DNA of 13,980 nt from Promethearchaeota archaeon (lineage in GTDB: Archaea; Asgardarchaeota; Lokiarchaeia; Sigyniarchaeales; SOKP01): contig JBHLLU010000081.1 in NCBI GenBank assembly GCA_048938895.1, positions 1 to 13,980 on the forward strand. Reading direction: 5' to 3'. Shown here piece by piece: positions 202 to 13,980 of this stretch. Every line of letters begins with the position of its first letter. The first letter of the stretch is position 1. Made by a program: the position numbers and the translations under genes. Below the pieces are notes generated by a model. That model saw only the letters and a list, made by a program, of their open reading frames with translations, made no database searches and was not told the DNA's origin.

Positions 202-2439
202 ATGAAGAAATCAATTATTAGCAAATTTATTCTGATAATATTAATAATATCCTTATTTTTACCTCAATTTAAGCCTCGTTTTCATCAAACCAAGAATAAT
301 TTAATTGGTTTAAATAGAGTGTCCACTCCATATCAATGGAATGAAACTATAATTAATGAGGGTATGGATCAGGGAAATTCCGTTGTTCTTGATAATAATG
401 AAGATATTTTAGTAACGGGGAGTGTTTACAACTCATCCAAACTTACTTCTGATTTATTTATTATAAAATATGGTAATAATGGTACTTTTAAATGGAATTA
501 CACATGGGGAGGTAACTCTGAGGATTCAGGAGTTTCTATTACAGTAGATTCCTCAAATGATATATATGTTGCTGGTTATAGTTCTAGTTTTACAAATAGA
601 AGTTATGATATTTGTTTATTAAAATTAGATTCTTCGGGAACTCTTCTTTGGAATACATCATGGGGAGGAGATGATGTGGATAAGGGCTATGGTGTCGAAG
701 TGGATGATCTTGGCAATGTATTTGTTGGTGGTTCAACCAAAATTAGTAATGGTTACGATGATGTTGTTTTATTGAAGTTTGATGCTTCTACAGGAAACTT
801 ACTTAAAAACACAACATGGGGTGATTATTACGATGAACGCGCTCAAGATATTGCCATTGATTCTTTTGGAAATGTATACTTAACAGGATATACTGATAGT
901 TTTGGTGCAGTAGTAAGAAAATTATTCCTAATCAAGTATAACACTACTGGAGATTTGGTGTATAATACGACCTTTGGAGATGATAGGTGGCATGAAGGGC
1001 GTTCTTTGGTCCTTGATTCAATTGAAAATATATATGTTGCAGGGTTTATCCAGAATTATGGAAAAGGTGGAGATTATATTTTACTTAAGTTTAATAGCAC
1101 TACAGGATCTATGGATTGGAATACGATCTGGGGCGGAGATGAGCATGATTATGGATATGGGTGTGCATTCGATTCAAAAGATAATATTTTAATTGTAGGG
1201 TCCACAGAAAGTTATGAAGGAAGTTATAGGAAGGTGTGTTTAGCTAAGTTTAATATTACTGGTCATTTTCAATGGTATAAAACCTTTAGCAATGAGATTG
1301 ATGATGTCGGATATGACATCGTCATTAATTCAGCAGATAGTGTATATATTACAGGAAAGACTAAATTATCGTTAAATGATTATGATATACTTATCATAAA
1401 AGATCATCCTATTCCATGGAAGTTTAAGGTTTCAACTGATGCTACCTCTCCGGATATCGATGGAACCTTTAATATTACATGGAGTATATCATTGGATGCA
1501 AAAAATTATTCATTATATCAATCTAATGTTTCTATTAGTGAAATAAATGGGAATGTAATAGAAATTGTTAAAGGGAATACAAACCGAACCGTTTTATTAG
1601 AAGATCTCGAGGAAGGAACTTACTATTATAAGGTTATTGCATTTAATGAAATTGGAAATAAAAGTTCAAATCAAATTAGAATTATAGTAAAGTATCCACC
1701 GAGTGATTTTATTCTAACTGAAGTAATACCTGCAATTAATACAGATGGGAAAGTCAATCTATTTTGGTCCTCATCATTACGAGCAGATAATTATTCAATA
1801 TATGTTAATGACAACTTTATAGATAATTTTAACAATAAGGGAACAAAAGTGATTGAAGGTTTGGCTAATCACTCATATTCTATACCCGGTACATTATCAG
1901 ATGGTAATTATTATTATGTAATCATCGCTTATAATAAAGCTGGTCTAAAAATGTCGAATTGTGTTAACGTAACTATTCAAAAAACTCCAAAATTCTTTGA
2001 ATTAACAAAGGAATTGGATAATAATGATTTTGACGAAGATGGTAAGTTCGTCTTATCATGGACAAGATCAAATTACTCACAATATTATCTCATCTACAGA
2101 TCCGTGAATTATATAACAGTTATAAATAAATCAGTCAGTTTAATTGGGAATTATACTCCTGATTTTGATTGGCCAGAATATCGCTATCCTATTTCAATCC
2201 GAAAAAATGGTACTTATTATTTTCTAGTGAAAGCGTTCAATAAATATGGGAATTATAGTTCAGAATGCATTCAAGTTGAGTTAAGATTACCTAAAGTCTC
2301 TCGACCGTCAGGGATTCCAATTGTCGTGATAATCATATTGAGTACCACTATCCCTATCGTGGGAGTAATAGGTGGGATATTTCTATATAAAAAAATGCGA
2401 ACTAGAGGAAAGGAGGACGTGGTAAATGGAACAGGATAA
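202..2439 (+). CDS. Membrane-anchored surface protein: SBBP-type 7-bladed beta-propeller, 3 FN3/Ig-like domains, C-terminal TM helix
   Basis: Basic then hydrophobic N-terminus (MKKSIISKFILIILIISLFL). Seven ~50-aa repeats of the form WNxTWGG..D.G..I.VDS.GNIYV.G...D..LLK(F/Y) at ~331-1404. Three ~95-aa repeats P..F.L.....DG.FNL.W..S..A.NYS.Y...G.YYY.V.AFN..G starting near 1408, 1693 and 1981. Hydrophobic IPIVVIIILSTTIPIVGVIGGIFLY followed by KKMRTR. Many N-x-S/T sequons. Confidence 0.92.
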   Translation: MKKSIISKFILIILIISLFLPQFKPRFHQTKNNLIGLNRVSTPYQWNETIINEGMDQGNSVVLDNNEDILVTGSVYNSSKLTSDLFIIKYGNNGTFKWNYTWGGNSEDSGVSITVDSSNDIYVAGYSSSFTNRSYDICLLKLDSSGTLLWNTSWGGDDVDKGYGVEVDDLGNVFVGGSTKISNGYDDVVLLKFDASTGNLLKNTTWGDYYDERAQDIAIDSFGNVYLTGYTDSFGAVVRKLFLIKYNTTGDLVYNTTFGDDRWHEGRSLVLDSIENIYVAGFIQNYGKGGDYILLKFNSTTGSMDWNTIWGGDEHDYGYGCAFDSKDNILIVGSTESYEGSYRKVCLAKFNITGHFQWYKTFSNEIDDVGYDIVINSADSVYITGKTKLSLNDYDILIIKDHPIPWKFKVSTDATSPDIDGTFNITWSISLDAKNYSLYQSNVSISEINGNVIEIVKGNTNRTVLLEDLEEGTYYYKVIAFNEIGNKSSNQIRIIVKYPPSDFILTEVIPAINTDGKVNLFWSSSLRADNYSIYVNDNFIDNFNNKGTKVIEGLANHSYSIPGTLSDGNYYYVIIAYNKAGLKMSNCVNVTIQKTPKFFELTKELDNNDFDEDGKFVLSWTRSNYSQYYLIYRSVNYITVINKSVSLIGNYTPDFDWPEYRYPISIRKNGTYYFLVKAFNKYGNYSSECIQVELRLPKVSRPSGIPIVVIIILSTTIPIVGVIGGIFLYKKMRTRGKEDVVNGTG
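331..1404 (+). repeat. Seven in-frame beta-propeller blade repeats (SBBP-like) in gene 1
   Basis: Seven blades can be counted in the translation, e.g. WNYTWGGNSEDSGVSITVDSSNDIYVAG, WNTSWGGDDVDKGYGVEVDDLGNVFVGG and WNTIWGGDEHDYGYGCAFDSKDNILIVG. Confidence 0.85.
2411..2416 (+). promoter_or_regulatory. Shine-Dalgarno sequence of gene 2, embedded in the 3' end of gene 1
   Basis: AGGAGG at 2411-2416 with a 9-nt spacer to ATG 2426. Confidence 0.75.
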
Positions 2440-5400
2440 ATTATTTAAAAGTGAAAAGAATAGATATATTTTAGCAATTTTTTCGTTATATCTTATTTTA
2501 TCTGCATTTTTAATTGGTTGCAAAGACGTTTGGGGGCAACCTCAGATTAATAATTTTACCGCTTCTCGTAATCCTGTTGATGTAGGGGAAGATATTCAAT
2601 TTGAGTGGGAAATAACCGGCTATCAACAAGTTTTGATCAATTTTGGGGATGGCACTCCTTTAGATGTCACGGGAGAAACTAATATTATCCATTCTTACTC
2701 CTTAGAGGGAAGATATGATGTAATTATTACTGCTATAGATAGTTCGGGAGATTCTACTAACCGAATTATAAACATGGTTGTGGAAAATAATGCCCCTTCG
2801 TTTAGTTTTGCATTCGATGTTGAAAATAATATTGCTTATGAAGATGAGTCTGTGAATATCTCAGTAGTTGATATGATTGAATCTGATTTTGATAAAGTGC
2901 CTGGTGTACTTACTTATATTTATGATTTTGCAGAGGGAACTGAAAGTCAGGTTTTAACCAATCAAAGTTCAGTAATTCACGCTTGGAGTAATGCAGGCAC
3001 ATATCCTGTAACTATAAGTGTAGTAGATGACCAAGGAGCACTAAGTCAACAAACTAAGGATATTAAGATCATAAATCAAGCACCTTCAGCCGAGATAAGT
3101 ATAGCCGTCGATGAAGATTACGGAGAGGCTACAAATAAATATATTGCCACTTATAATTGGCAAAATGCGATAATTGATTCGATCCCGAATGGATGGACCA
3201 TTTATAGCTTAGAGGGTTTAAATCCTCCATTAACCTCCGTCAGTATTGTTGAGAGTGGTGATGAGGCTCATGACAAGGTTCTTAGGCTAAATGATAACTC
3301 TCATCAAAAGGGAATCTCAATAGGAAATACCTTTGAAGGTCAGGATTATGGAACCGTTGAATTTTGGGTAAGAAGTAGCGATATATCTTCTAAAACGTGG
3401 GCGCTCTCATTGTGGGATGATACAGATATGGCATTACAAGTCTTAGTAGATGATATGAATTGGCAATATACCACAAATACGAATTATTACTCAATATATT
3501 CCTCGTTTAATGCGGAAGCTGATCTCTGGTATCATGTGAGAATTGATTTTTGTATAGACAATTCGAGTGGAAATTATTACAACCTTACCTCTCAGCAATT
3601 TAGGATAACAGTAAATGATTTGGAATCTTCTATATTTACTATTGATAATGTTGATATAACTAAGATAAATACTCTTAAATTAGAAACGAGCATACGAGAC
3701 ACAGGTACAAGCTGGATAGACGCAATTGGTTATTCATGGGATCCTTATTACCAAGTTGGAGATAACAGAAATCCTGTAATTACATATTCAGATAAAGTAG
3801 TCTTTTTAATGAATGCGATAAATATCGTTGAATCTGAGAGTGATATGGATTCATTAAGATATTTCTGGCAGTTTGGAGATGGTACTTGTTCATTTGGAAA
3901 ATATGTACAACATCAATACGGAGCTCCAGGATTTTATAAGATTGTGTTAATGGTTAAAGATGATAATGGAGAAATTGACATTGCGCAGGATTACTTATCT
4001 GTAAATAACATGAATCCTACTATTGATATAAACTCAATAGAGGATCCAATTACAGTTTATGAAGGGCAAACTATTGGATTCAATGCTGATGTAATAGATG
4101 ATGCAAGTGATATGGCTAGTCTTGAATATTTCTGGAATTTTGAATTTGACGATCCAATTTTTGATCCCAATAATTTAGATGAGTTTGAATATGGGGGCTG
4201 GAAAAAATCTCATATTTACAGTGACGATTATACCGGGGACATTTATACCGTTGTAAGAGATCCTGATAATTATACAAGCTATAGCTCAGTGGGAGTTAAT
4301 GTATTAAATGTAGATCCTACCCTAAGCATATGGGATGCAAGTATTGTTGCTGATTGTTCGGTCCTGATCTCAAGATCGAGCGAAGAGATAGATGCTGATT
4401 TCACCATAGCCCTTTTAGGAAATAATGAGCCAATTTTATATAAGAACTTTAGTTTTACTGAGTCTAATAATAATTTTATCTATTTTACTAAAGAATTAGT
4501 ATCACTTTCTCTCTCAAAATATTGGCAACTTGTTATAAAATCCTCTATAGATATTCCAGAATATAGCTGGTTTAAGTACGATCTGATTTTACTCATGCAA
4601 AATGGAGAAACACTAATTCTCTCATCAGATAAACTCTACGGAGGTTCTGATGGCTATTGGGAAGTAGTTCTTAATCCATATTTCTATGACAGTACCAATC
4701 ACAATTTTAGGTATCCAGTTACTTTTCACACCCATGTATGGGATCCTTCTACAGACGATATTACTTTATCTCTATCTTATGACGCACATTTCTTACTAAA
4801 TCTAAATAGTTCCACTAGTTTACCAGGAGGATATTCTTCCACGAAATATTATACTTTTAATGACGTAGATTATAGGATTATTGTATATGAGCAAGCTGGA
4901 TCTAATTATGCAAACATATCTATAAACCAATTAGTAGCCATGGAGCTATATGATGAAAATAATTTCCCCGTTGCTTTAAATTTGAATTTTACAATAGATC
5001 CGCTGTTAAATCTTACCAGTTTTTTTAACATAATTGAGACTGATTTTCCTCTCTCAAATATAGCTCTAAAAGATTGTTTGGAGGCAGAACATTGCTTATC
5101 TGCAAATATTTTTGATGACGATGGAGGAAGTGATGCTTTAACAATTAAGTTCAACACAATGAGTTCTATAGCTATAGAAAATCTTTGTCCTAAATTAATC
5201 CCAAACATACCTATTTTATCATCAGAGACCAGAAATATAACTATTTATGCCCAGGTATGGGATTATGATGAGAATCTTGAACTCATGAATGCGTTTTTGC
5301 TATGTCCAATCGATTATTCTAACACTACGATCATTGATGAATTAGTGTGTGATTATATCAATACCTCCAACAAACTCCCTATCGATACTCATAGGTTTAT

Positions 5401-8400
5401 AGAATCGAATAACGGAACCTTCTATATTGTTGATTCTACGAATCCCGGTGTGTTGTTAAAATCGATAAACGAGGGTAATACATGGAACTCTATTCTCACA
5501 TTAGGAGGAGGATATGAAATTGCGGCTATGTGGTATGATAGAAATATGGAGGTTATTTATCTTGCCTGTTCAAATGATATAAAAGTTCAGATTATAAAAC
5601 ACAGACTTTATGATGATTATTCCACCTATAGTAGTGAGAGATATGGAGGAAATTTAGAAGCCTTGGATCTTGCCTTAATTGATACTATGTTATATGTGGG
5701 ATATGGAAATAGTAGTGGGAATGATGCTTACATGGTATTTGGAGCGTTAGATACTAATACTATGTCATGGATGGGAACATATTCATTGTATATGGGAACT
5801 TTTAACGATAGACAATATAAAATAAGTTCTTTTGTAACCAATAATACTCAAATTTACTATCTATGGCAATGGGTAAACGAAAATGTTGAACTTTGGTTTT
5901 ACAATGTTTCAGATCATACATTTACAAATTTAAATTCAGATTCAAGGATAGAGTCATTATTGACTAATACAGATTTATTAGAACGACCATATAGAGGATT
6001 AACTCATGATGGAGCTGAAATTATTAGCGTTCTGTTGAAGAATACAGAGTACACAGAAAAAGGACACTATCCAGCCACTATGAGTTTTAAGAATGATGAT
6101 GTACCCAATGAACCAGATTGTTTCGAAGAAATTGGTACTGCAGGTGGTACTGTGAATGTTATCTCTGAACTGGACGGTCATAAAAAAGTATTAAAAATAT
6201 TCGATAATAGTCTTGATTTAAAAAATGCCTATGTTATTAAAGAACTTTCTTCAACTCCTAATAACGGAACAGTAGAGTATTGGATGTGGTCTGATAACAC
6301 TTGGAAAATTAATGTTTTTCGGTTAGATAATGGTAATGATGCTAGTACGCTAGTCCGAATGAGAACCCTCTTTAATGTTTTACAGTATTATAATGGGACT
6401 AGTTGGAAGAATATACGATGGATACAGAATAATACGTGGTATCACTTTAGAGTGGATTTTGAGTGTAGTACTGATGGATATCAAGGATTATCACAATATA
6501 GCTGGTGTTTGTATGTAAATGGAATAAAATATGGTCCATTTCCATTTGAAACCATTCAACCTCAAGCATATCAAATTGCATGGTATACAAGTGCTCTATT
6601 ATTAATGGGATTTTACTCTTATTGTATTGATGCAATCGGATTTTCCTGGGATCCGGATTATATTACTGGAGATAATATAAATCCGACCGATCCTGGTCAT
6701 TTTCCAGCAACTTATAGCTTTAGGTATGACGATCCTCCCAATGAACCAGATACTTTTGAAGTAGTCGGAACTGCAGGTGGTACTGTAAATGTTAGAAGTA
6801 TGATCGATGGCCATAAAGATGTTGTAGAACTATATGACAACCATACTGGTCTTCAAAATGCCCGTGTTATTAAAGAACTTGATATATTCCCAGATCATGG
6901 GACACTAGAATACTGGATGAGATCTGATGATGCTTCTAAACTTTGTGGTTTTCGACTAGATAATGGGGCTGTCGCTAATTCATTGGTTAGATTGAGGACT
7001 CTATTCAACGTATTACAATATAATAATGGCACTAATTGGAAAAATGTTGCTTTCATCCAAAATAATACATGGTATCATCTTAGAATAGATTTTGAATGCA
7101 CGAGTGGAGGGTATAGAGGATTATCACAATATACATGGCGTCTTTTTATAAATAGTATCAATTATGGAGTTTTTCCATTTGAAAATAATGAAGCTCAAGC
7201 AAGCCAAACTGTATGGAATACAGATAATTCTCTTTTAGGATTTGCATATTATTACTATTATATTGACGCAATAGGTTTTTCCTGGGATCCAGATTACATG
7301 GTTGGAGATAATATTAATCCCACAGAACCGGGTCATTATCCTGCAACTTATAGTTTTGAAAACGATTTTCTTCCAAACGAGCCTGACTCTTTTGAGGAAA
7401 TCGGGACTGTGGGGGGTACTGTTAATGTTATTAATGTACTTGATGGACACAAAAAAATTCTACAACTTTTTGACAACAATAGTCTTTTAGCTAAAGCCTA
7501 TGTTATCAAAGAACTTTCATCAACTCCTACAAACGGAACGATAGAATATTGGATGAGATCTACTGACGTCTTCAAAGTATGTGGTTTTCGGTTAGATAAT
7601 GGTTCTGAGGGAGGGAGTTTGGTCAAAATAAGAACATTATTCAATGTATTGCAATATGAAGATGGAGAGGGTTGGCATAATATACGATTCATGGAAAAAA
7701 ACAGATGGTATCATTTCAGGATTGAGTTTGAATGTACTGATGGAGATTATAAAGGATTATCTCAGTATTCTTGGCGTTTGTTTGTTGATGGGATAAAATA
7801 TGGGGATTTTGATTTTACTAACAATGTGACTCAAGGGAGCCGAATTGAATGGCATACTGGTTCTCTTATAGGATCTGGTTATTATTTCTATTATATTGAT
7901 GCTATAGGATTTTCGTGGGATCCAGAGTATGAAATTGGGGATAATTTATTTATGGAAAGTAAGTATTATTATTGTACTTATAGTGTAAGTTCAAATACTC
8001 TCATTAGATACCGCCAAAATGAACAACTTGCTTTAATGTTAAATCGCAATACAGCTCCCGGAAATTCTGAAAAAGCATTTAGCATTGGTGATAAAATTTA
8101 TCAAACAGGTGCAGGTGGGATGATAACTTTAAGTTCTACACCACTTTTTAACTCTAGTAAAATAAGAGCAATATCGGATAATTATCTTTTTACTGATGAT
8201 GGGAAGGTTTATAAACTATTTTCTCCCTATTTTACGGGAGATTGCTCAGTAGAGTTTTTTGATGGATTGGGAAGTGGTATATATGAAGGGGAATTATCTA
8301 ATAATCTTGAATTTTCAACAAGACATTTTACTATTTATGAGGGAATCCTCAATTTTGTGGGGGAAGAATTTTATTTAATCACTATGAAGGCAGATGATGG

Positions 8401-11400
8401 TTTTAAGGTGACTAAATCAGGTGGGCTGCTTTCTTTTGATTTAACGATGCCATTTGCCACAATAAGAGATTTTCCAAATGAGACCGTTGAAAGTGAGGAA
8501 ATACAATTAATGGCTGATATTTCTGTTTTTGGACAGGAGGATCCTGATCCCCAAGTTTATAATCTAAAATGGATCTTTGGTGATGGAAGTTATTCATATA
8601 TCCAAAATCCAAGGCATGCATGGACTAGTGCTGGAACTTATAATGTTACGCTATTATTGGTTGATTGTTATGGAAATAAATTTATAACAAATAAAACTAT
8701 TGAAATTAAAGAACAAGCACCAGAAATCAATGGTCCTTTTTATTTTCAAGGAGTTGAGGAACAGGGAATTATACTAGACATCGGAATTTATGATAGTATA
8801 ATTGATGAGCAATATCTAAGTTATTCTTGGTATAATGACATCGGAACTGAGATTTTAGATTTTAAAAACAATAGTAAGCCTATTTTAGTGTTAAATGACG
8901 GTGAATATAATTATACACTCAAAGTTGAGGATAAAGGGGGAAATATTGCCACAGCAAACATTACTGTTTATGTTGAAGATGTTCCACCAATTTTATTTGT
9001 GACAAATTATGGCTACTATGGTACTTTTGGTGGAATGATGAAACTAAATGCGTATGTACTAGATAATGCTAATGACATCGATAATATGGAATTTGAATGG
9101 ATTCTCAATCATGGAACCAATAGTTCAATCTATAATACTTTAAATACGGGAATTTGTAATACTCTAACGTTTGAGAATTATATGAAGCCTACTGTTTGTT
9201 TAGGGCAGATTAAAGTTAATGACTCTTTATCTGGAAAAAGCAGTGTTGCAAGTTTTACCATAACTAACTTAATCGATTCTAATAGAAATAATATTCCTGA
9301 TGATTATGAATGGATGATTGAAGAATGCGGCTGGGTATTCAATATTTCTATTACTTATCAAGATGATGATCTCGATAATTTAATTAATTTCTATGAGACA
9401 AATGTATCTTATACCAATCCTTATGATCCAGATACGGATAATGATGGTCTGTATGATGGGTATGATATTTATGGCTTTGGAGAAAGACCTTTTAAGACTG
9501 ACCCAAATAATCCTGATACGGACGGAGATTTATTAGATGATTCAACCGAAGTTTTTGGATGGAGTATTAATTCTGAACTTCTAGGGGATATTACAGTAAC
9601 TTCAGATCCACTGAAAAATGATACTGACGGAGAAGGCTTATTAGATAATATTGAATTTGAGAAAGGTACCGACCCGCGGAATCGCGATACAGATAATGAA
9701 GGATTAAATGATTTTTTGGATCCATATCCTCTTAAGAGAGACAAGGATGAAGATGGCTTAAATGATTTTTTTGAATTTTTGCTGGGAACTGAATTAAATG
9801 TCGCAGATACCGATGGAGATAGTTTATCAGATGGTCAGGAGGTTCTTGGTTGGGGTTTTAGAACAAATCCACTAAGTAGAGATTCTGATCACGATTTTCT
9901 TTTAGACGCTGAGGAAGTAAACTCCTATCAATTTAAATTAGAGGAAAGAACTGACTTAAGCACTCCGGTGTATTTATGGTTCAATAAATTTATGGGAAAG
10001 GCATTGAGTGCCCAACTTGCCATCTGCATAGTGTTTGGTGAGGTAAGTACTGAAGGGGAGGGCTATGGCATAGCTGATGTTCCAGATGTAGAAGTTACTG
10101 TTACGAAAATGAGTGCAAACCTTGAATTATATAAAGGCTGTACCAACGGATCAAGATACTTCTCGGAAGTAATTGATATTCGGGAAAAGATTGAAGAGAA
10201 GTCTTTAAATTATTGGGGTGGATATAAAGTCAGTATTAATGATACCACTGCTGGTTGTTTACTTGAACAATTCGAAATAGGTGTAACTGGGTATCTAAAT
10301 CCAAACAATCCTGATTTTGACAGAGACAAAATAATGGATGGTGTAGAGAAGGATTTACTAGTTAATGGCACATCACAAATTGATTTCAATGAGGTTTATT
10401 TAAACAATAACTTTACGACTCATTATAGTTCAGAGGATTTAGCTTTAATGCATTATTCTGCAACAAATTCCTTTGAAAACGACACCATTGGAGCTGATCC
10501 TGGGTGGTTTGAATATGTTAATGAAAATGGAGGTTCAGTTCAAGTTATAAAGGAGTTAGGAGGTCACTCAGAAGTTTTAGAACTGCATGATGAGAGCACT
10601 GGTTATAACCAGAATGCCTACGTTCTTAAAACCATTTCACGTAATTCAGGAACTATAGAATATTGGATGAGGTTTAATGCAACGACAAAACTATGTGGAT
10701 TTAGGTTAGATAACGGTGATATATCTAATGAACTTATAACAATTAGGGCATTTAACAATTTCTTTCAACTTTTTGATGGTACTAGCTTTCAAAATATTAT
10801 ACCGATACAGAATAACACATGGTATCACATTAGAGTTGATTTCGAGTGTACTTCGGGACAGTATAGAGGATTATCTCAATATACTATGCGTCTCCTCATA
10901 AATGGCATTACAATTGGAGTGTTCCCATTTGTCAATAATGAAGCTCAAGCAAGCCGAATTGAATGGTATACAGATAGATACTCTTCTGTCCCAGAACATT
11001 ATTATTTCATCGATGCCATAGGACTCTCTTGGGATTCTAATTATAAGGTTGGAGACAATTTTATAGGTGAAAATGGTTCATATTTCTTGGAGCCTGGTAA
11101 TTTCCCTGGGACATATTCATTTGAACAAATTCCAATTGGAGGTCAGCCTTCAGCATGGGTAATCAATGAAACTGGTGGTAATCTTCAAGTCATAGAAGAA
11201 TTGGATGGACATAAATCAATAGTGGAGATGAACCAGACAACTAGTGTTTCTGCAGTAAGTATGACTCGAGGATTAATTATACCACACCAGAGTGGCACAA
11301 TTGAATGGTGGTGGAGAACCACTAATGCATCACATATAACCGAATTTGGAATAGGAAATACCTCTGTAAATTTCCTTAGACTTAGGATCAATAACAATAA

Positions 11401-13980
11401 GTATGAATTTAATAATGGAGCCTGGAATGAACTTGGTTTAAATGTTTCTGACAATACATGGTACCATATATCAATTGCTTTTGAATGCACTTCAGGTAGT
11501 TATAGAGGATTAGAGCAGTACTCTTGGTTAATATATATTAATGAGATTTACTATGGAAATTTTACATTCGAACATCAAGGATTTGAGATTGATGAGGTGT
11601 GGTTTAAAACAGGACCATTATTTAACTATATGAGTTATATTGATGCTATAAGTTTCTCATGGGATAGAAAATATGTAGTTGGAGAGAATTTGCAAGATAT
11701 TACAGAAGGATTTGATGAATTCACAATTGAGATTCCAGATATTGGAATAATTTATGATGCGGAATTAAGATTAAAGATTGAATCTGAAGGTATTCCAACT
11801 GGTTCAGGTACGATCATAATTGAACTTGCTAAAGAGGATATCAATACAAAAATCAAGGATGTTTTCTTAATTGCTAACATTGAACATTTTACCAATACAG
11901 AGATTTTTTCATTCAAAAGAACTTTTGATCTTTCTCTCTACATCGATTATGGGATGATAAATAGGTACTTCGGAAAATACCGTTTAAATGTAAAAGTATT
12001 CAGCACACAATACTCAGATATTTTTAATATTACAGAATTTATCCTCAGTACTGATACTTTTGTTCAAGCAGGATCAAGTGATACAGAAGCATGGATTACA
12101 GATCCGGGGAAGAGAGATACGGATGGGGATGGTTTGACTGATTATTGGGAGATATATGGAAGGAAAGAGGCGGGCTATGAACCTACCAATCCTTTAAGCG
12201 AAGATACAGACGGAGATGGTACTACAGATTTCTATGATCGAGATCCTCTCCGTGATCTTATTCTTGAAATAACTCCTATATATGGCTTTCATAATGGAGT
12301 AAATGATTTATATACTAACCATCCCGTTTTGGAAATAACTATCTCTTTTAGTTCTGGCGGACAGGTTTATTCTTTTTATTCTGTAAAAAAGCGTGCTCAT
12401 GAGAATCCAAAAACTGTAGGATGGTGGATATTCTCTAGAACACTATATCGAACAGCTTATTTCGACGGAACTCATGGTTCCTATGAATGTCATTATTATG
12501 CAAATATAGAAGATCACTGGTTTTCTAGTCCGATAAAAATTAATCTTGCACTCTGGGAAATGGATATTGGATTTCTTCTAACCTGGGATGATCTTCTTCT
12601 GTCAGCTACTAGGAATTATGATGTTGGGCTTCCTGGGAATACACAAATATTTGAAATAGGATTTGGTCATCGTATGGCAGTCCAATTCAAAACTATTGCT
12701 CTCAATAAAACAAATACTATAGCCATATATGATGAAGCAACAGTCTTTAATGACCATTATCAAACAAAAGAACGGTTTAACATAATTCAACTATATGTAA
12801 AAGATGGTTTCTGGCCTCTTTTATGGACTCCGTTTGTTAGAGGCGCTAACACCATTGTAATACCTACATCACTCTTTAAAGAAACATTATTAAACAAGTA
12901 TGTTCAGGATGAAAGAATAGAAGAAACACCATTATATCATGAAAGTAACGAAGATTATTACCAATTCATTTCTGTGGATAGAGAGGGGACAACTAAAGAA
13001 GCGTGTGGTGATCTTGATTTTATATTTGTAAGATTTGAAGTAACTGCAGCGGAAGCTGTCGAGATTCTACATTTATTACTTACGTGTATCATAAATGAAA
13101 CTACTAATGAAACTGCTCTCAAATATAAGTTCGCTTCAACAAAACGAAATGGATTCTCTCCTGTAATGATGAATCTCCCCTTAGATGCATTGAGCTTCAT
13201 TCCTTGGAAATTCGAATTCCAAAATTCTCAACAAGGAGACCAACCTAGAGATTTCTGGCAATCTCTTGCTGATGCAGTTGTTGCAGTTGGTGAATTTATC
13301 GTAGGTGTATTTGTTGCAATTGGAGAATTCTTTCTTGCTATTTGGGATGGCATTGTTAGTCTTGTTTTTGGGACAATATTGCTAGCAATATTGGAGTTTC
13401 TTGCTTATATACTATGGTGTTTGATACGAGCTGCGCTTCTAATACTAATTTGGATTGCTTTCGGCATTACTGTACTTTTTCTAACTTTAGGAATTGCTAC
13501 GATAGCAGTAGCACTAATTCCAATATCACTTATTTTTGGGGCATCAATGTATTATACTATTAATAGTGTGGGGATTGATTTTCCTGGATTTTCATTTGCT
13601 ACTGGTTATGATACGGGAATTGATAATTATGAAGCATTTGATATACCTGTGCCTTATATAAATGGGTGGTTTGCTCTGGGTGGTAATCGAATTATTGATG
13701 TTACTATTAAATTTTGGCCACCAGAATTCGAATTTAATTCAACAGGGTCTTCTTATAAAGATGAGGAAGCTTCTGAGGGCTTAAACGCTCCCATAGATTT
13801 TGATTCTTTAAAAACTTCAGCTGCCTTAGATTGGGATGTATTTAAATCTGCGGTTCCAATGCTTTCTAAAGGTTATAGCGCCTCCCGTAATTGGTGGACA
13901 ATTGCTGTTCCTTTTGGTATTGCTGCAATTACACTTCCTTCAGAGGTACCAACTCTTGCTGTAGCAAAATACGCAACATT
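2426..13980 (+). CDS. Giant (at least 3851 aa, runs off the 3' edge) secreted multidomain surface protein: PKD/Ig, 6x LamG-like, beta-propeller, TSP3-like, C2-like, long hydrophobic segment
   Basis: Manual translation of frame +2 begins MEQDKLFKSEKNRYILAIFSLYLILSAFLIGCKDVWGQPQINNF and has no stop through ...PTLAVAKYAT at 13978. There is an SD upstream and a signal-peptide-like N-terminus. PKD motifs include INFGDG, WQFGDG, WIFGDG and HAW..AGTY.VT. Internal repeats are coherent throughout. The exact function is unknown. Confidence 0.95.
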   Translation, partial: MEQDKLFKSEKNRYILAIFSLYLILSAFLIGCKDVWGQPQINNFTASRNPVDVGEDIQFEWEITGYQQVLINFGDGTPLDVTGETNIIHSYSLEGRYDVIITAIDSSGDSTNRIINMVVENNAPSFSFAFDVENNIAYEDESVNISVVDMIESDFDKVPGVLTYIYDFAEGTESQVLTNQSSVIHAWSNAGTYPVTISVVDDQGALSQQTKDIKIINQAPSAEISIAVDEDYGEATNKYIATYNWQNAIIDSIPNGWTIYSLEGLNPPLTSVSIVESGDEAHDKVLRLNDNSHQKGISIGNTFEGQDYGTVEFWVRSSDISSKTWALSLWDDTDMALQVLVDDMNWQYTTNTNYYSIYSSFNAEADLWYHVRIDFCIDNSSGNYYNLTSQQFRITVNDLESSIFTIDNVDITKINTLKLETSIRDTGTSWIDAIGYSWDPYYQVGDNRNPVITYSDKVVFLMNAINIVESESDMDSLRYFWQFGDGTCSFGKYVQHQYGAPGFYKIVLMVKDDNGEIDIAQDYLSVNNMNPTIDINSIEDPITVYEGQTIGFNADVIDDASDMASLEYFWNFEFDDPIFDPNNLDEFEYGGWKKSHIYSDDYTGDIYTVVRDPDNYTSYSSVGVNVLNVDPTLSIWDASIVADCSVLISRSSEEIDADFTIALLGNNEPILYKNFSFTESNNNFIYFTKELVSLSLSKYWQLVIKSSIDIPEYSWFKYDLILLMQNGETLILSSDKLYGGSDGYWEVVLNPYFYDSTNHNFRYPVTFHTHVWDPSTDDITLSLSYDAHFLLNLNSSTSLPGGYSSTKYYTFNDVDYRIIVYEQAGSNYANISINQLVAMELYDENNFPVALNLNFTIDPLLNLTSFFNIIETDFPLSNIALKDCLEAEHCLSANIFDDDGGSDALTIKFNTMSSIAIENLCPKLIPNIPILSSETRNITIYAQVWDYDENLELMNAFLLCPIDYSNTTIIDELVCDYINTSNKLPIDTHRFIESNNGTFYIVDSTNPGVLLKSINEGNTWNSILTLGGGYEIAAMWYDRNMEVIYLACSNDIKVQIIKHRLYDDYSTYSSERYGGNLEALDLALIDTMLYVGYGNSSGNDAYMVFGALDTNTMSWMGTYSLYMGTFNDRQYKISSFVTNNTQIYYLWQWVNENVELWFYNVSDHTFTNLNSDSRIESLLTNTDLLERPYRGLTHDGAEIISVLLKNTEYTEKGHYPATMSFKNDDVPNEPDCFEEIGTAGGTVNVISELDGHKKVLKIFDNSLDLKNAYVIKELSSTPNNGTVEYWMWSDNTWKINVFRLDNGNDASTLVRMRTLFNVLQYYNGTSWKNIRWIQNNTWYHFRVDFECSTDGYQGLSQYSWCLYVNGIKYGPFPFETIQPQAYQIAWYTSALLLMGFYSYCIDAIGFSWDPDYITGDNINPTDPGHFPATYSFRYDDPPNEPDTFEVVGTAGGTVNVRSMIDGHKDVVELYDNHTGLQNARVIKELDIFPDHGTLEYWMRSDDASKLCGFRLDNGAVANSLVRLRTLFNVLQYNNGTNWKNVAFIQNNTWYHLRIDFECTSGGYRGLSQYTWRLFINSINYGVFPFENNEAQASQTVWNTDNSLLGFAYYYYYIDAIGFSWDPDYMVGDNINPTEPGHYPATYSFENDFLPNEPDSFEEIGTVGGTVNVINVLDGHKKILQLFDNNSLLAKAYVIKELSSTPTNGTIEYWMRSTDVFKVCGFRLDNGSEGGSLVKIRTLFNVLQYEDGEGWHNIRFMEKNRWYHFRIEFECTDGDYKGLSQYSWRLFVDGIKYGDFDFTNNVTQGSRIEWHTGSLIGSGYYFYYIDAIGFSWDPEYEIGDNLFMESKYYYCTYSVSSNTLIRYRQNEQLALMLNRNTAPGNSEKAFSIGDKIYQTGAGGMITLSSTPLFNSSKIRAISDNYLFTDDGKVYKLFSPYFTGDCSVEFFDGLGSGIYEGELSNNLEFSTRHFTIYEGILNFVGEEFYLITMKADDGFKVTKSGGLLSFDLTMPFATIRDFPNETVESEEIQLMADISVFGQEDPDPQVYNLKWIFGDGSYSYIQNPRHAWTSAGTYNVTLLLVDCYGNKFITNKTIEIKEQAPEINGPFYFQGVEEQGIILDIGIYDSIIDEQYLSYSWYNDIGTEILDFKNNSKPILVLNDGEYNYTLKVEDKGGNIATANITVYVEDVPPILFVTNYGYYGTFGGMMKLNAYVLDNANDIDNMEFEWILNHGTNSSIYNTLNTGICNTLTFENYMKPTVCLGQIKVNDSLSGKSSVASFTITNLIDSNRNNIPDDYEWMIEECGWVFNISITYQDDDLDNLINFYETNVSYTNPYDPDTDNDGLYDGYDIYGFGERPFKTDPNNPDTDGDLLDDSTEVFGWSINSELLGDITVTSDPLKNDTDGEGLLDNIEFEKGTDPRNRDTDNEGLNDFLDPYPLKRDKDEDGLNDFFEFLLGTELNVADTDGDSLSDGQEVLGWGFRTNPLSRDSDHDFLLDAEEVNSYQFKLEERTDLSTPVYLWFNKFMGKALSAQLAICIVFGEVSTEGEGYGIADVPDVEVTVTKMSANLELYKGCTNGSRYFSEVIDIREKIEEKSLNYWGGYKVSINDTTAGCLLEQFEIGVTGYLNPNNPDFDRDKIMDGVEKDLLVNGTSQIDFNEVYLNNNFTTHYSSEDLALMHYSATNSFENDTIGADPGWFEYVNENGGSVQVIKELGGHSEVLELHDESTGYNQNAYVLKTISRNSGTIEYWMRFNATTKLCGFRLDNGDISNELITIRAFNNFFQLFDGTSFQNIIPIQNNTWYHIRVDFECTSGQYRGLSQYTMRLLINGITIGVFPFVNNEAQASRIEWYTDRYSSVPEHYYFIDAIGLSWDSNYKVGDNFIGENGSYFLEPGNFPGTYSFEQIPIGGQPSAWVINETGGNLQVIEELDGHKSIVEMNQTTSVSAVSMTRGLIIPHQSGTIEWWWRTTNASHITEFGIGNTSVNFLRLRINNNKYEFNNGAWNELGLNVSDNTWYHISIAFECTSGSYRGLEQYSWLIYINEIYYGNFTFEHQGFEIDEVWFKTGPLFNYMSYIDAISFSWDRKYVVGENLQDITEGFDEFTIEIPDIGIIYDAELRLKIESEGIPTGSGTIIIELAKEDINTKIKDVFLIANIEHFTNTEIFSFKRTFDLSLYIDYGMINRYFGKYRLNVKVFSTQYSDIFNITEFILSTDTFVQAGSSDTEAWITDPGKRDTDGDGLTDYWEIYGRKEAGYEPTNPLSEDTDGDGTTDFYDRDPLRDLILEITPIYGFHNGVNDLYTNHPVLEITISFSSGGQVYSFYSVKKRAHENPKTVGWWIFSRTLYRTAYFDGTHGSYECHYYANIEDHWFSSPIKINLALWEMDIGFLLTWDDLLLSATRNYDVGLPGNTQIFEIGFGHRMAVQFKTIALNKTNTIAIYDEATVFNDHYQTKERFNIIQLYVKDGFWPLLWTPFVRGANTIVIPTSLFKETLLNKYVQDERIEETPLYHESNEDYYQFISVDREGTTKEACGDLDFIFVRFEVTAAEAVEILHLLLTCIINETTNETALKYKFASTKRNGFSPVMMNLPLDALSFIPWKFEFQNSQQGDQPRDFWQSLADAVVAVGEFIVGVFVAIGEFFLAIWDGIVSLVFGTILLAILEFLAYILWCLIRAALLILIWIAFGITVLFLTLGIATIAVALIPISLIFGASMYYTINSVGIDFPGFSFATGYDTGIDNYEAFDIPVPYINGWFALGGNRIIDVTIKFWPPEFEFNSTGSSYKDEEASEGLNAPIDFDSLKTSAALDWDVFKSAVPMLSKGYSASRNWWTIAVPFGIAAITLPSEVPTLAVAKYAT
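2537..4306 (+). repeat. N-terminal cluster of four PKD/Ig-like domains in gene 2 (the third is interrupted by a LamG-like insert)
   Basis: Motifs INFGDG..HSY...GRYDVIITAID, YDFAEG..HAWSNAGTYPVTISVVDDQG, YFWQFGDG..HQY..PGFYKIVLMVKDDNG and YFWNF..SHIYSDD..VVRD, joined by N-x-x-P linkers (NNAP, NQAP, NMNP, NVDP). Confidence 0.8.
3134..3775 (+). repeat. LamG/ConA-like repeat copy 1 (most diverged)
   Basis: YIATYNW...HDKVLRLNDN...GTVEFWVRS...WYHVRIDF...IDAIGYSWDPYYQVGDN. Confidence 0.75.
5372..8225 (+). other. Probable beta-propeller with an Asp-box/BNR motif, interrupted by three LamG-like repeats
   Basis: SINEGNTW (5462-5485) fits the Asp-box S-x-D/N-x-G-x-T-W. Blade-like strands include MWYDRNMEVIYLA, DLALIDTMLYVG, FVTNNTQIYYLW and RGLTHDGAEIISVL, and they resume after 7950 (KYYYCTYSVSSNTL, IRAISDNYLFTDDGKVYKL). 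Confidence 0.55.
6062..7948 (+). repeat. Three tandem LamG/ConA-like repeats (copies 2-4; starts at 6062, 6695, 7331; periods 633 and 636 nt)
   Basis: Each copy reads GH(Y/F)PAT.SF...PNEPD.FE..GT.GGTVNV...DGHK.....DN...GT.EYWM.S...FRLDNG...RTLFNVLQY...N.WYH.R..FEC...Y.GLSQY.W...IDAIGFSWDP.Y..GDN. The similarity is also visible at the DNA level. Confidence 0.92.
8441..9271 (+). repeat. Second cluster of three PKD/Ig-like domains
   Basis: KWIFGDGSYSYIQNPRHAWTSAGTYNVTLLLVD; EQAP...LSYSW...GEYNYTLKVEDKGGN; DVPP...MEFEWIL...IKVND. Confidence 0.75.
9275..9916 (+). repeat. Nine TSP3-like (DxDxDG..D..E) calcium-binding motifs
   Basis: DSNRNNIPDDYE, DDDLDNLINFYE, DTDNDGLYDG, DTDGDLLDDSTE, DTDGEGLLDNIE, DTDNEGLND, DKDEDGLNDFFE, DTDGDSLSDGQE and DSDHDFLLDAEE, mostly preceded by T(D/N)P. 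Confidence 0.85.
10448..11692 (+). repeat. Two further LamG/ConA-like repeats (copy 5 ~10448-11062, copy 6 ~11096-11692)
   Basis: HYSATNSFEND...GTIEYWMR...NNTWYHIRVDFECTSG...IDAIGLSWDSNYKVGDN and GNFPGTYSFE...GTIEWWWR...NTWYHISIAFECTSG...IDAISFSWDRKYVVGEN. Confidence 0.88.
12098..12250 (+). repeat. Two distal TSP3-like motifs (one more at 10313-10348)
   Basis: TDPGKRDTDGDGLTDYWE and TNPLSEDTDGDGTTDFYDRDPL, plus NPNNPDFDRDKIMDGVE near 10298. Confidence 0.8.
13253..13540 (+). other. ~96-aa highly hydrophobic, probably helical membrane-interacting segment of gene 2
   Basis: FWQSLADAVVAVGEFIVGVFVAIGEFFLAIWDGIVSLVFGTILLAILEFLAYILWCLIRAALLILIWIAFGITVLFLTLGIATIAVALIPISLIFG contains only six charged residues (D, E, E, D, E, R). 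Confidence 0.85.

Follow-up and report, generated by a model that had tools for sequence, protein, structure and literature searches.

What is a run of about one hundred apolar residues doing close to the end of a giant archaeal surface protein? The question is raised by contig JBHLLU010000081.1 of a Promethearchaeota archaeon, which we analysed over its entire length of 13,980 nucleotides (nt) and call the window, and whose long open reading frame (ORF) encodes this stretch from position 13253 onwards. The first-pass annotation had proposed a triggered pore-forming, membrane-penetrating or fusion element. We found no direct support for such an element; the stretch is built into a conserved multi-pass module. 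The best explanation is that the stretch forms the beginning of a conserved membrane module at the C-terminus, some 440 residues long when complete, with which giant surface proteins carrying PKD, LamG and TSP3 domains end in Asgard archaea of the Lokiarchaeia type. We further propose that the stretch anchors the protein permanently and at the same time serves as the recombination junction in a polymorphic system of membrane cassettes, a proposal that we hold to have about an even chance of being right.

The C-terminal 552 residues of the window's ORF served as the query of a profile-free, exhaustive search for homologs, which resulted in 178 cluster representatives of the module at E ≤ 0.001. 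Giant homologs of 2.3–6.2 thousand amino acids (aa) numbered 43, and the few with a name came from Promethearchaeota, Lokiarchaeota, Hodarchaeota and Odinarchaeota bins. The module was present in 32 of 400 Asgard genomes, all of one class, and in 28 of the 134 genomes of the window's own family. It had no match in Pfam, NCBIfam or PADLOC and matched no PDB chain by sequence at E ≤ 1; no toxin family of Pfam was matched, the thresholds being E ≤ 0.01 for the whole protein and E ≤ 5 for its last 552 residues. A protein atlas contained no match to the module above 0.78, a level that is not meaningful. The module was not described in the part that we covered of the literature on Asgard giant PKD proteins, archaeal polymorphic toxins and hypervariable Lokiarchaeal surface proteins.

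The conserved C-terminal part of the giant protein is laid out in the window as follows, with residue numbers counted from the start of the ORF:

12209..12709, + strand: C2-like beta-sandwich, about aa 3262–3428; first domain of the conserved pre-membrane trunk, mapped by offset from the homolog P0045
12710..13222, + strand: second pre-membrane domain, mixed beta/alpha, confidently predicted; ends in the conserved ...NLP..L.F.PW
13223..13246, + strand: juxtamembrane motif N-S-x-Q-G-x-x-P, aa 3600–3607; G3604 in 97% and P3607 in 99% of aligned homologs
13253..13363, + strand: predicted helix H1, aa 3610–3646, amphipathic in the family; carries both VA[VI]GEF hexamers, and D3616, E3623, E3634 and D3641 on one face
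13364..13375, + strand: possible turn or kink, aa 3647–3650, including the extra codon of F3648 (13367–13369)
13376..13426, + strand: predicted helix H2a, aa 3651–3667, amphipathic; last part of the conserved trunk
13427..13429, + strand: R3668, basic in 96% of 117 homologs; in relatives the switch point between trunk and tail
13430..13537, + strand: predicted helix H2b, aa 3669–3704, 36 residues with hardly any polar one in the family; forms a single helix with H2a in both structure models
13544..13735, + strand: predicted six-stranded beta domain, about aa 3707–3770, with D-I-P-V-P and KFWPP; packs on the end of H2b in the model
13736..13888, + strand: variable linker, acidic and rich in Ser and Asn; low-confidence prediction
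13892..13978, + strand: next apolar helix WWTIAVPFGIAAITLP, aa 3823–3838, and the beginning of a further helix, cut off by the contig end

Residues 3610–3712 (103 aa) comprise 18 Ile, 17 Leu, 14 Ala, 10 Phe, 10 Val, 3 Glu, 2 Asp and 1 Arg. The Kyte–Doolittle mean over 19 residues exceeded 1.6 at centres 3621–3640 and 3643–3703, and elsewhere in the protein only at 21–27. The first-pass annotation had described the letters correctly. The hexamers VAVGEF (nt 13280, aa 3619) and VAIGEF (nt 13313, aa 3630) start 33 nt (11 aa) from each other, the acidic residues are D3616 (13271), E3623 (13292), E3634 (13325), D3641 (13346) and E3657 (13394), and the single Arg, R3668 (13427), is followed by 49 uncharged residues (A3669–I3717, 13430–13576); the beta-rich continuation and another apolar stretch at the window edge (WW..., aa 3823–3838) are both present. 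The periodicity of 11 residues that had been read from these letters survived only in part. The hexamer repeat is no finding by itself because 176 of 2000 composition-preserving shuffles matched at least five of six positions at offsets 3–30, and the self-identity of the segment at offset 11 (8/49) is below that at offset 7 (12/53). What stood was the placing of the acids on one helix face: D3616, E3623, E3634 and D3641 are spaced by 7, 11 and 7 residues and fall at 220–240 degrees on a helical wheel of 100 degrees. The hydrophobic moment was 0.15–0.41 up to residue 3668 and 0.02–0.10 past residue 3670.

A per-column profile of 117 aligned homologs gave the same division of the stretch. In the 57 residues of H1–H2a polar positions recur every three to four residues (3612, 3616, 3619, 3623, 3627, 3634, 3638, 3641, 3645, 3650, 3654, 3657, 3661 and 3664); the junction position 3668 is occupied by Arg in 68% and by Lys in 27%; and across 3669–3704 the polar fraction is 0.00–0.12, except for 0.27 at 3682. 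The lengths of the three regions across homologs are mostly 57 + 1 + 36 residues. When charges were counted in 123 homologs, H2b had none in 62 members and one in 43, and H1–H2a had from 0 to 17 per member; in the window protein this region is unusually apolar. The family median hydrophobicity of H1–H2a, 2.42, is far over the membrane threshold. The fraction of acidic residues at 3616, 3623, 3634 and 3641 was 0.19–0.38, with Gln, Lys or Met common there. Since the polar face recurs and these fractions are low, the acids of the window protein are a local version of a polar helix face and not conserved acids, which argues against a triggered pore or fusion element. In the window's subfamily a beta-rich piece and a variable linker come after the segment, then three further apolar helices, a charged helical region and one last helix, and the full tail was seen in an alignment of 15 members. 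The part that lies beyond the contig end comprises, in homologs, two membrane helices, the charged helical region and the last membrane helix at the C-terminus. One short tandem copy from a relative, P0059 (L013:17440-19524), carries Gly where the junction otherwise has its conserved basic residue.

The role of the basic residue as a junction emerged from the loci of relatives, where the giant gene is often followed by one to three short tandem copies of 430–1014 residues that start at the C2-like or the pre-membrane domain (loci L013, L016, L019, L020, L021, L022 and L023). None of the 12 complete short copies that include the pre-membrane region had a hydrophobic segment in its first 60 residues. 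Identity between paralogs of one locus changed along the module in the same manner in five of five pairs:

pre-membrane domain: 81–90%
H1–H2a: 60–93%
H2b: 25–36%
beta domain: 20–30%
rest of the tail: 14–24%

The step was also present in DNA. In locus L013 most 90-nt alignment windows between the Arg codon and a point about 660 nt before it were 79–97% identical (two pairs dipped to 56–58% in one upstream window), the one over the Arg codon was 61–66% identical, and those beyond it 35–56%. Compared with other tail types, the window protein was 51–52% identical before the Arg, 25–31% in H2b and 13–23% in the beta domain. A step at the Arg both within loci and across tail types shows that the family has discrete tail types, which are joined to a common trunk at this residue.

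Many module genes are followed by a second gene for a membrane protein. We counted as such any downstream gene on the same strand, within 700 nt, whose product had at most 260 aa and at least two membrane-like segments. A gene of this description came after 16 of the 39 module genes with a complete 3' end, and under the same rule after 25 of 930 large genes of the window's genome, an excess of about 15-fold. The products were of two kinds: proteins of about 190–230 residues with two helices and a soluble end, and proteins of about 145–157 residues with four helices. Long tails of one type were followed in six of eight cases by a protein of 421–520 residues from one family, most of these with a hydrophobic segment at each end. 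Similarity of the tail and similarity of the downstream gene coincided in 6 of 10 pairs with related tails, as compared with 5 of 368 unrelated pairs, although the pairs are not independent. The small downstream proteins belonged to no significant Pfam family (one weak bPH_3 match had E 0.036), and no known immunity family of Pfam or NCBIfam matched the downstream proteins. A tentative impression is that some of them are YdbS-like PH-domain proteins. Prediction of a complex between a module-only protein of 436 aa and its downstream membrane protein of 212 aa resulted in a score of 0.00 and gave no verdict. Another group of proteins, with the N-terminal motif ...G.G.(K/E)(E/D)(D/N)P.I(I/L)..., recurs beside module genes in several genomes (L015:8363-9340, L019:9259-10233 and L013:16687-17151, also L019:969-2701 and L015:12246-12926); some of these proteins have beta-helix-like repeats, with weak matches to DUF3737 and Beta_helix.

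Structure models were obtained with AlphaFold2 for two homologs, P0045 and P0085, from family alignments. P0045 has 1028 aa and a complete tail and is 64% identical to the window protein over the last 552 residues (62% in H1–H2a and 56% in H2b). Its model had a mean predicted local distance difference test score (pLDDT) of 74, with a confident pre-membrane region, helices of 37 and 52 residues over the segment, and after it six strands (block-mean pLDDT 84–94), a low-confidence linker and seven helices. In the model of P0085, which starts at the segment, a single helix of 93 residues (block-mean pLDDT 83–97) was followed by the same beta domain. Both models placed H2a, the Arg and H2b in one continuous long helix. 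The break between the helices of P0045 corresponds to the extra codon of F3648, a position that is filled in only 3 of about 114 aligned rows and is missing from related metagenome contigs; contigs of two related metagenome runs showed 3-nt deletions at 13363 and 13367. An extra residue that is tolerated at this site fits a turn or kink. The contrast drawn earlier with 20-residue helices that have polar loops and basic flanks is borne out by these lengths, and instead of a conventional anchor of three or four transmembrane helices the homolog models showed one or two very long helices.

The domains on both sides of the stretch were also compared with known folds. Residues 233–396 of the P0045 model aligned with the C2 domain of cPLA2 at Z 12.4, with a root-mean-square deviation (rmsd) of 2.9 over 123 residues, and the top 50 matches to residues ~231–397 were nearly all C2 domains (Z 10.0–12.4, rmsd 2.3–4.2, 106–137 residues), including those of cPLA2, perforin, dysferlin and the synaptotagmin type. 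These matches indicate an eight-stranded C2 fold in the model, about 180 residues before the membrane segment; the C2 family of Pfam was matched neither in the whole protein nor in the last 552 residues. For the membrane part no match stood out from background: none of 48,161 chains reached Z 8, the best having 6.9, and Foldseek returned 0 matches at E ≤ 0.001, results that do not exclude a shared fold. Weak frataxin-like matches of a helix on a sheet (Z 6.3–6.6) covered model residues 72–172. They indicate that the model packs the sheet on the last ~28 residues of the apolar helix, and such packing on the end of H2b would account for part of the excess length of this helix. Matches to anthrax protective antigen and to perforin had low TM-scores, the one to perforin sitting in its C2 domain.

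We read the topology by eye from the alignments with the positive-inside rule. The basic residue stands at the N-terminal end of H2b and acids at its C-terminal end, and next to the later helices conserved Lys or Arg residues stand on the same side as the charged helical region. This placement of charges favours an H1 that runs inwards, R3668 at the cytoplasmic face and a beta domain outside. The likeliest topology, for which the odds are about even, would thus have H1 crossing from outside to inside, R3668 at the inner face, H2b leading outward again and the beta domain on the outer side. In the reading that we propose, the module would be inserted co-translationally and would permanently hold a glycoprotein-like ectodomain of about 3600 residues in the cell's own membrane. 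The acids would belong to a polar face that mediates packing of the long helices, either with one another or with later ones, and would not be pH triggers. The first 58 residues of the stretch would close the conserved trunk, and the last 36 would open a tail that is interchangeable across the family.

Several observations weigh against this reading. The polymorphism was seen in relatives; the window's own genome has one copy, and the contig ends inside its tail. Orthologs that share the window's tail type show no step and are 86–94% identical through H2b and the beta domain. No small membrane-protein gene lies downstream of 23 of the 39 copies, among them the closest complete ortholog, in locus L025, and the co-variation of tails with downstream genes may reflect plain shared ancestry of the loci. 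Sequons of the form N-X-S/T are enriched 1.53-fold in the ectodomain and 1.62-fold in the pre-membrane domain, and only 1.01-fold in the beta domain and linker, which speaks weakly against placing these outside. In 7% of 123 homologs H1–H2a lacks any 19-residue window above 1.6, and some members carry up to 17 charges there; with a region so polar or rich in charge, H1 may not cross the membrane in all members. An apolar helix of 36 residues is overlong for a single perpendicular crossing, there is no simple way to fit a hairpin with arms of 37 and 52 residues into a bilayer, and the two models disagree on the turn between H1 and H2, so that the placement of the helices in the membrane is uncertain. 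As a separate observation on locus L025, the products of L025:328-747 and L025:1243-2088 end in Roadblock/LC7-like sequence, judged by eye from the translations.

The polymorphism of the tails may serve conflict or recognition, or may be mere turnover. The variable tails, the small membrane-protein genes and the signal-less copies of relatives together make a membrane-active role possible, in a form other than the one proposed in the first-pass annotation. Such a role could be that of a polymorphic, membrane-embedded identity or conflict system, in which the trunk swaps unrelated multi-pass tails at the Arg codon, signal-less copies serve as spare cassettes, and a small membrane protein matched to each tail decides with it on the compatibility of cells at contact or fusion, either by kin recognition or as toxin and immunity. 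We consider this possible but doubtful.

Unlikely, in our judgement, is a plain multi-pass anchor with a tail that evolves fast under little constraint, in which gene conversion keeps the 5' part of the copies alike and the small genes are unrelated neighbours or assembly helpers. The identity of 86–94% through H2b and the beta domain among orthologs of the window's tail type would be expected from it, as would the failure to find any toxin or signalling domain and the 23 of 39 copies without a small membrane-protein gene. Under relaxed constraint, however, identity should decay gradually, whereas in every pair it drops within about 45 nt of one codon, and the lengths of mostly 57 and 36 residues around a residue that is basic in 96% of homologs indicate strong constraint. 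The excess of about 15-fold in downstream small membrane-protein genes also speaks against it. So does the availability to the organism's surface proteins of an ordinary single anchor: a single C-terminal helix followed by Lys and Arg is present in the product of gene 1, upstream of the giant ORF, and not in the giant protein with its ~100 apolar residues, beta domain and further helices.

The arrangement of a long trunk, an exchangeable end and a small gene behind it recalls the polymorphic toxins of contact-dependent inhibition (CDI) and Rhs systems. Displacement of C-terminal parts and orphan cassettes are described for CdiA-CT/CdiI and Rhs in the parts consulted of Zhang et al. 2012 (PMC3482391) and Jackson et al. 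2009 (PMC2935791), and the former lists, in the sections concerned, Tox-WTIP as a two-helix pore-forming toxin domain and Imm-CdiI and Imm17 as two-helix immunity proteins. As in these systems, a giant, repeat-rich secreted protein has a trunk that is conserved up to a fixed junction and unrelated C-terminal parts beyond it, and truncated downstream copies keep a piece of the trunk and lack a secretion signal (12 of 12 in relatives). As a partial further likeness, a small gene follows many copies and often encodes a membrane protein of two or four helices, which may be compared with CdiI of E. coli EC93 and Imm17 as far as these are described in that source. The differences are that the variable part is here a multi-pass membrane domain of 210–800 residues and not a soluble enzyme or a two-helix peptide, that the junction of the module lies inside a membrane helix, that the lineage is archaeal (Lokiarchaeia), and that no releasing peptidase, known toxin or immunity family or delivery route is evident for the module.

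These comparisons bear on the proposal that the variable tail acts as a toxin that depolarises membranes or forms pores and sits on a giant filament, with the downstream protein as its immunity and the signal-less copies as silent spares. The abrupt identity step at a conserved junction in five of five paralog pairs, the arrays of truncated, signal-less copies and the genes for membrane proteins of two or four helices after 16 of 39 copies, against a background of 25 of 930, would all be accounted for, and a two-helix toxin domain and two-helix immunity proteins have precedent in the portion of PMC3482391 that deals with them. We nevertheless find it quite unlikely. At least five apolar helices cannot pass an export channel and would lodge in the membrane of the producer, with no route to a target; neither a releasing peptidase nor any established toxin or immunity family came out of Pfam, NCBIfam and PADLOC; 23 of 39 copies, including the closest ortholog of the window protein, are without the small downstream gene; and the tails share a plan of apolar helices and a G-x-G...K motif, unlike unrelated toxin domains. 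Because the tail must lodge in the cell's own membrane and no toxin, immunity or peptidase family was found, we do not file the module as a polymorphic toxin system.

Among archaea the nearest comparison is VARTIG of Thermococcales, a surface protein with Ig domains whose C-terminal part is hypervariable through recombination and which has variable downstream genes; according to the sections available to us of Makarova et al. 2021 (PMC8416519) it has been likened to polymorphic toxin systems and its function is not known, and those sections report no counterpart in other archaea and do not mention Asgard genomes. The window protein resembles VARTIG, as described there, in being a large archaeal surface protein with a variable C-terminal part and variable downstream genes. 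It differs, again going by that partial description, in that the membrane-embedded tail varies here and an extracellular Ig domain of the arCOG07710 type there, and in lineage and protein family.

Variable regions in the membrane-spanning parts of two proteins encoded side by side, with type VI delivery of one of them, IdsD, define specificity in the IdsD/IdsE pair of Proteus mirabilis. The likeness to the module, with its membrane-spanning variable regions and two membrane proteins encoded side by side, would be one of analogy; there is no homology, IdsD and IdsE have no giant ectodomain, and binding between tail and partner is hypothetical here. Polycystin-1 and adhesion receptors likewise combine an ectodomain of PKD and LamG domains with a juxtamembrane domain and a multi-pass tail. 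The window protein shares with polycystin-1 the huge PKD/LamG ectodomain, a conserved juxtamembrane domain and multiple membrane helices, but the sole match, TIGR00864 (E 1.2e-4, 18.7 bits against a cut-off of 1861), lies within a PKD domain, and fold searches of the membrane part showed no similarity to polycystin-1.

The amphipathy of H1–H2a raised one further possibility, namely that its 57 residues form an oligomeric extracellular stalk of the hendecad type, as in tetrabrachion, and that only H2b lies in the membrane. The acid spacing of 7, 11 and 7, the single 93-residue helix in the P0085 model and the charge-rich H1–H2a of some homologs are in line with such a stalk, and the tetrabrachion coiled coil 1fe6 aligned over 52 residues (rmsd 1.5, Z 5.8), as any long helix would. 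We regard it as very unlikely. Charged residues and Gln together make up just 6 of the 57, and a median hydrophobicity of 2.42 is the reverse of what a water-exposed coiled coil would have; the basic residue conserved in 96% of homologs would be exposed on the outer face, with the beta domain on the inner side. Chance alone can explain the hexamer repeat, and unlike the tetrabrachion stalk the segment has only two copies of the hexamer, a mostly apolar surface and no sustained 11-residue repeat.

The likeness to colicins and to the diphtheria toxin T domain, on which the first-pass annotation had relied, is limited to an apolar helical pair with acids nearby. In those toxins hairpins of about 40 residues are buried in a soluble bundle of ten helices, and pore-forming colicins are encoded adjacent to small integral-membrane immunity proteins. 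Here there are ~100 apolar residues and four more apolar helices with no shielding amphipathic bundle in the models, and neither a Pfam family of this kind nor a PDB match by sequence was found. A triggered element, responding for example to acid, that stays out of the membrane until a signal and then enters another membrane could draw on the long apolar helices with their stripe of protonatable acids, on a helix length beyond that of a bilayer crossing and on a giant adhesin-like protein that could reach other cells, but it is highly improbable given that nothing in the models or the sequence shields the apolar helices in water, that the acids are not conserved as acids (fractions 0.19–0.38), that some members have 0–2 charges in the region and others up to 17, and that sequence similarity to colicin, diphtheria T or fusion proteins is lacking and the fold lists (best Z 6.9) contain no pore former, although absence from them does not exclude such a fold.

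The remainder of the window consists of the gene upstream and the ectodomains of the giant protein. The assembly has 4.65 Mb in 174 contigs at 31% G+C, and this contig holds two genes, both on the + strand:

202..2439, + strand: upstream gene 1, a surface protein with an SBBP beta-propeller and Ig/fn3-like domains, with an ordinary single C-terminal anchor and a basic tail
2426..13978, + strand: giant ORF, 3851 aa so far with no stop before the contig end; ectodomains and C-terminal membrane module
2465..2521, + strand: N-terminal signal or anchor h-region, aa 14–32, ending in LIGC; the sole other hydrophobic stretch of the protein

Gene 1 and the giant ORF overlap by 14 nt at the latter's start, which suggests that both surface proteins are encoded in a single operon. 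The ectodomains comprise PKD domains, LamG-like repeats and TSP3-like calcium-binding repeats. LamG-like repeats of ~210 residues recur in the protein at ~5980-7950 and ~10450-11700 (aa 1186–1841 and 2676–3091), with relatives of 26–37% identity on four other contigs of the genome (C83, C10, C146 and C46); the C-terminal module, unlike these repeats, is single-copy in the genome. The LIGC end of the N-terminal hydrophobic region (2465-2524) resembles a lipobox. Its Cys is found in some homologs (LISC, FINC) and not in others, which makes lipid anchoring doubtful.

Judged by the close homologs P0003 and P0004, of 4041 aa, about 190 C-terminal residues are missing from the giant ORF. A tblastn search of the window's own genome with the last 552 residues matched only the window itself and gave no second copy of the module; with the final 230 residues of two full-length homologs as queries the sole match was the window's end, and nothing on other contigs was better than E 0.13. 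The missing residues and the downstream gene of this organism are therefore not visible. In public sequencing data, contigs from four runs cover the apolar stretch, with strain variants that include the loss of the F3648 codon; none of the run-derived contigs reaches usefully past the contig end, and a related strain diverges from nt 13738. Independently built contigs of public runs stop within 5–20 nt of the window end (13980). The data suggest a branch of the assembly graph inside the tail, caused by strain differences or by a repeat.

Asgard archaea are studied for cell contact, for entanglement and for possible merging with partners, and the surface proteins of the cultured strains are barely known. 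For Promethearchaeum, the portions consulted of one study report putative PKD-domain surface-layer proteins that proteomics did not detect (PMC11284389), and giant Asgard proteins are listed in Extended Data Fig. 7 of another (PMC8813620). The module described here is a lineage-restricted anchor of some of the largest Asgard surface proteins and has a landmark at the level of a single residue, the conserved Arg, which in related genomes is a recombination switch to interchangeable membrane tails. If tails and small membrane proteins are not cognate, the family, which has no name so far, would still deserve an entry in Pfam and would serve as a warning that ordinary anchors can include long apolar stretches without loops. 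If they are cognate, it would be the first polymorphic system with a multi-pass membrane domain as its variable part, and a candidate for recognition or conflict. Should the reading as an identity or conflict system be true, it would add a new layer of cell–cell interaction in the archaeal lineage closest to eukaryotes.

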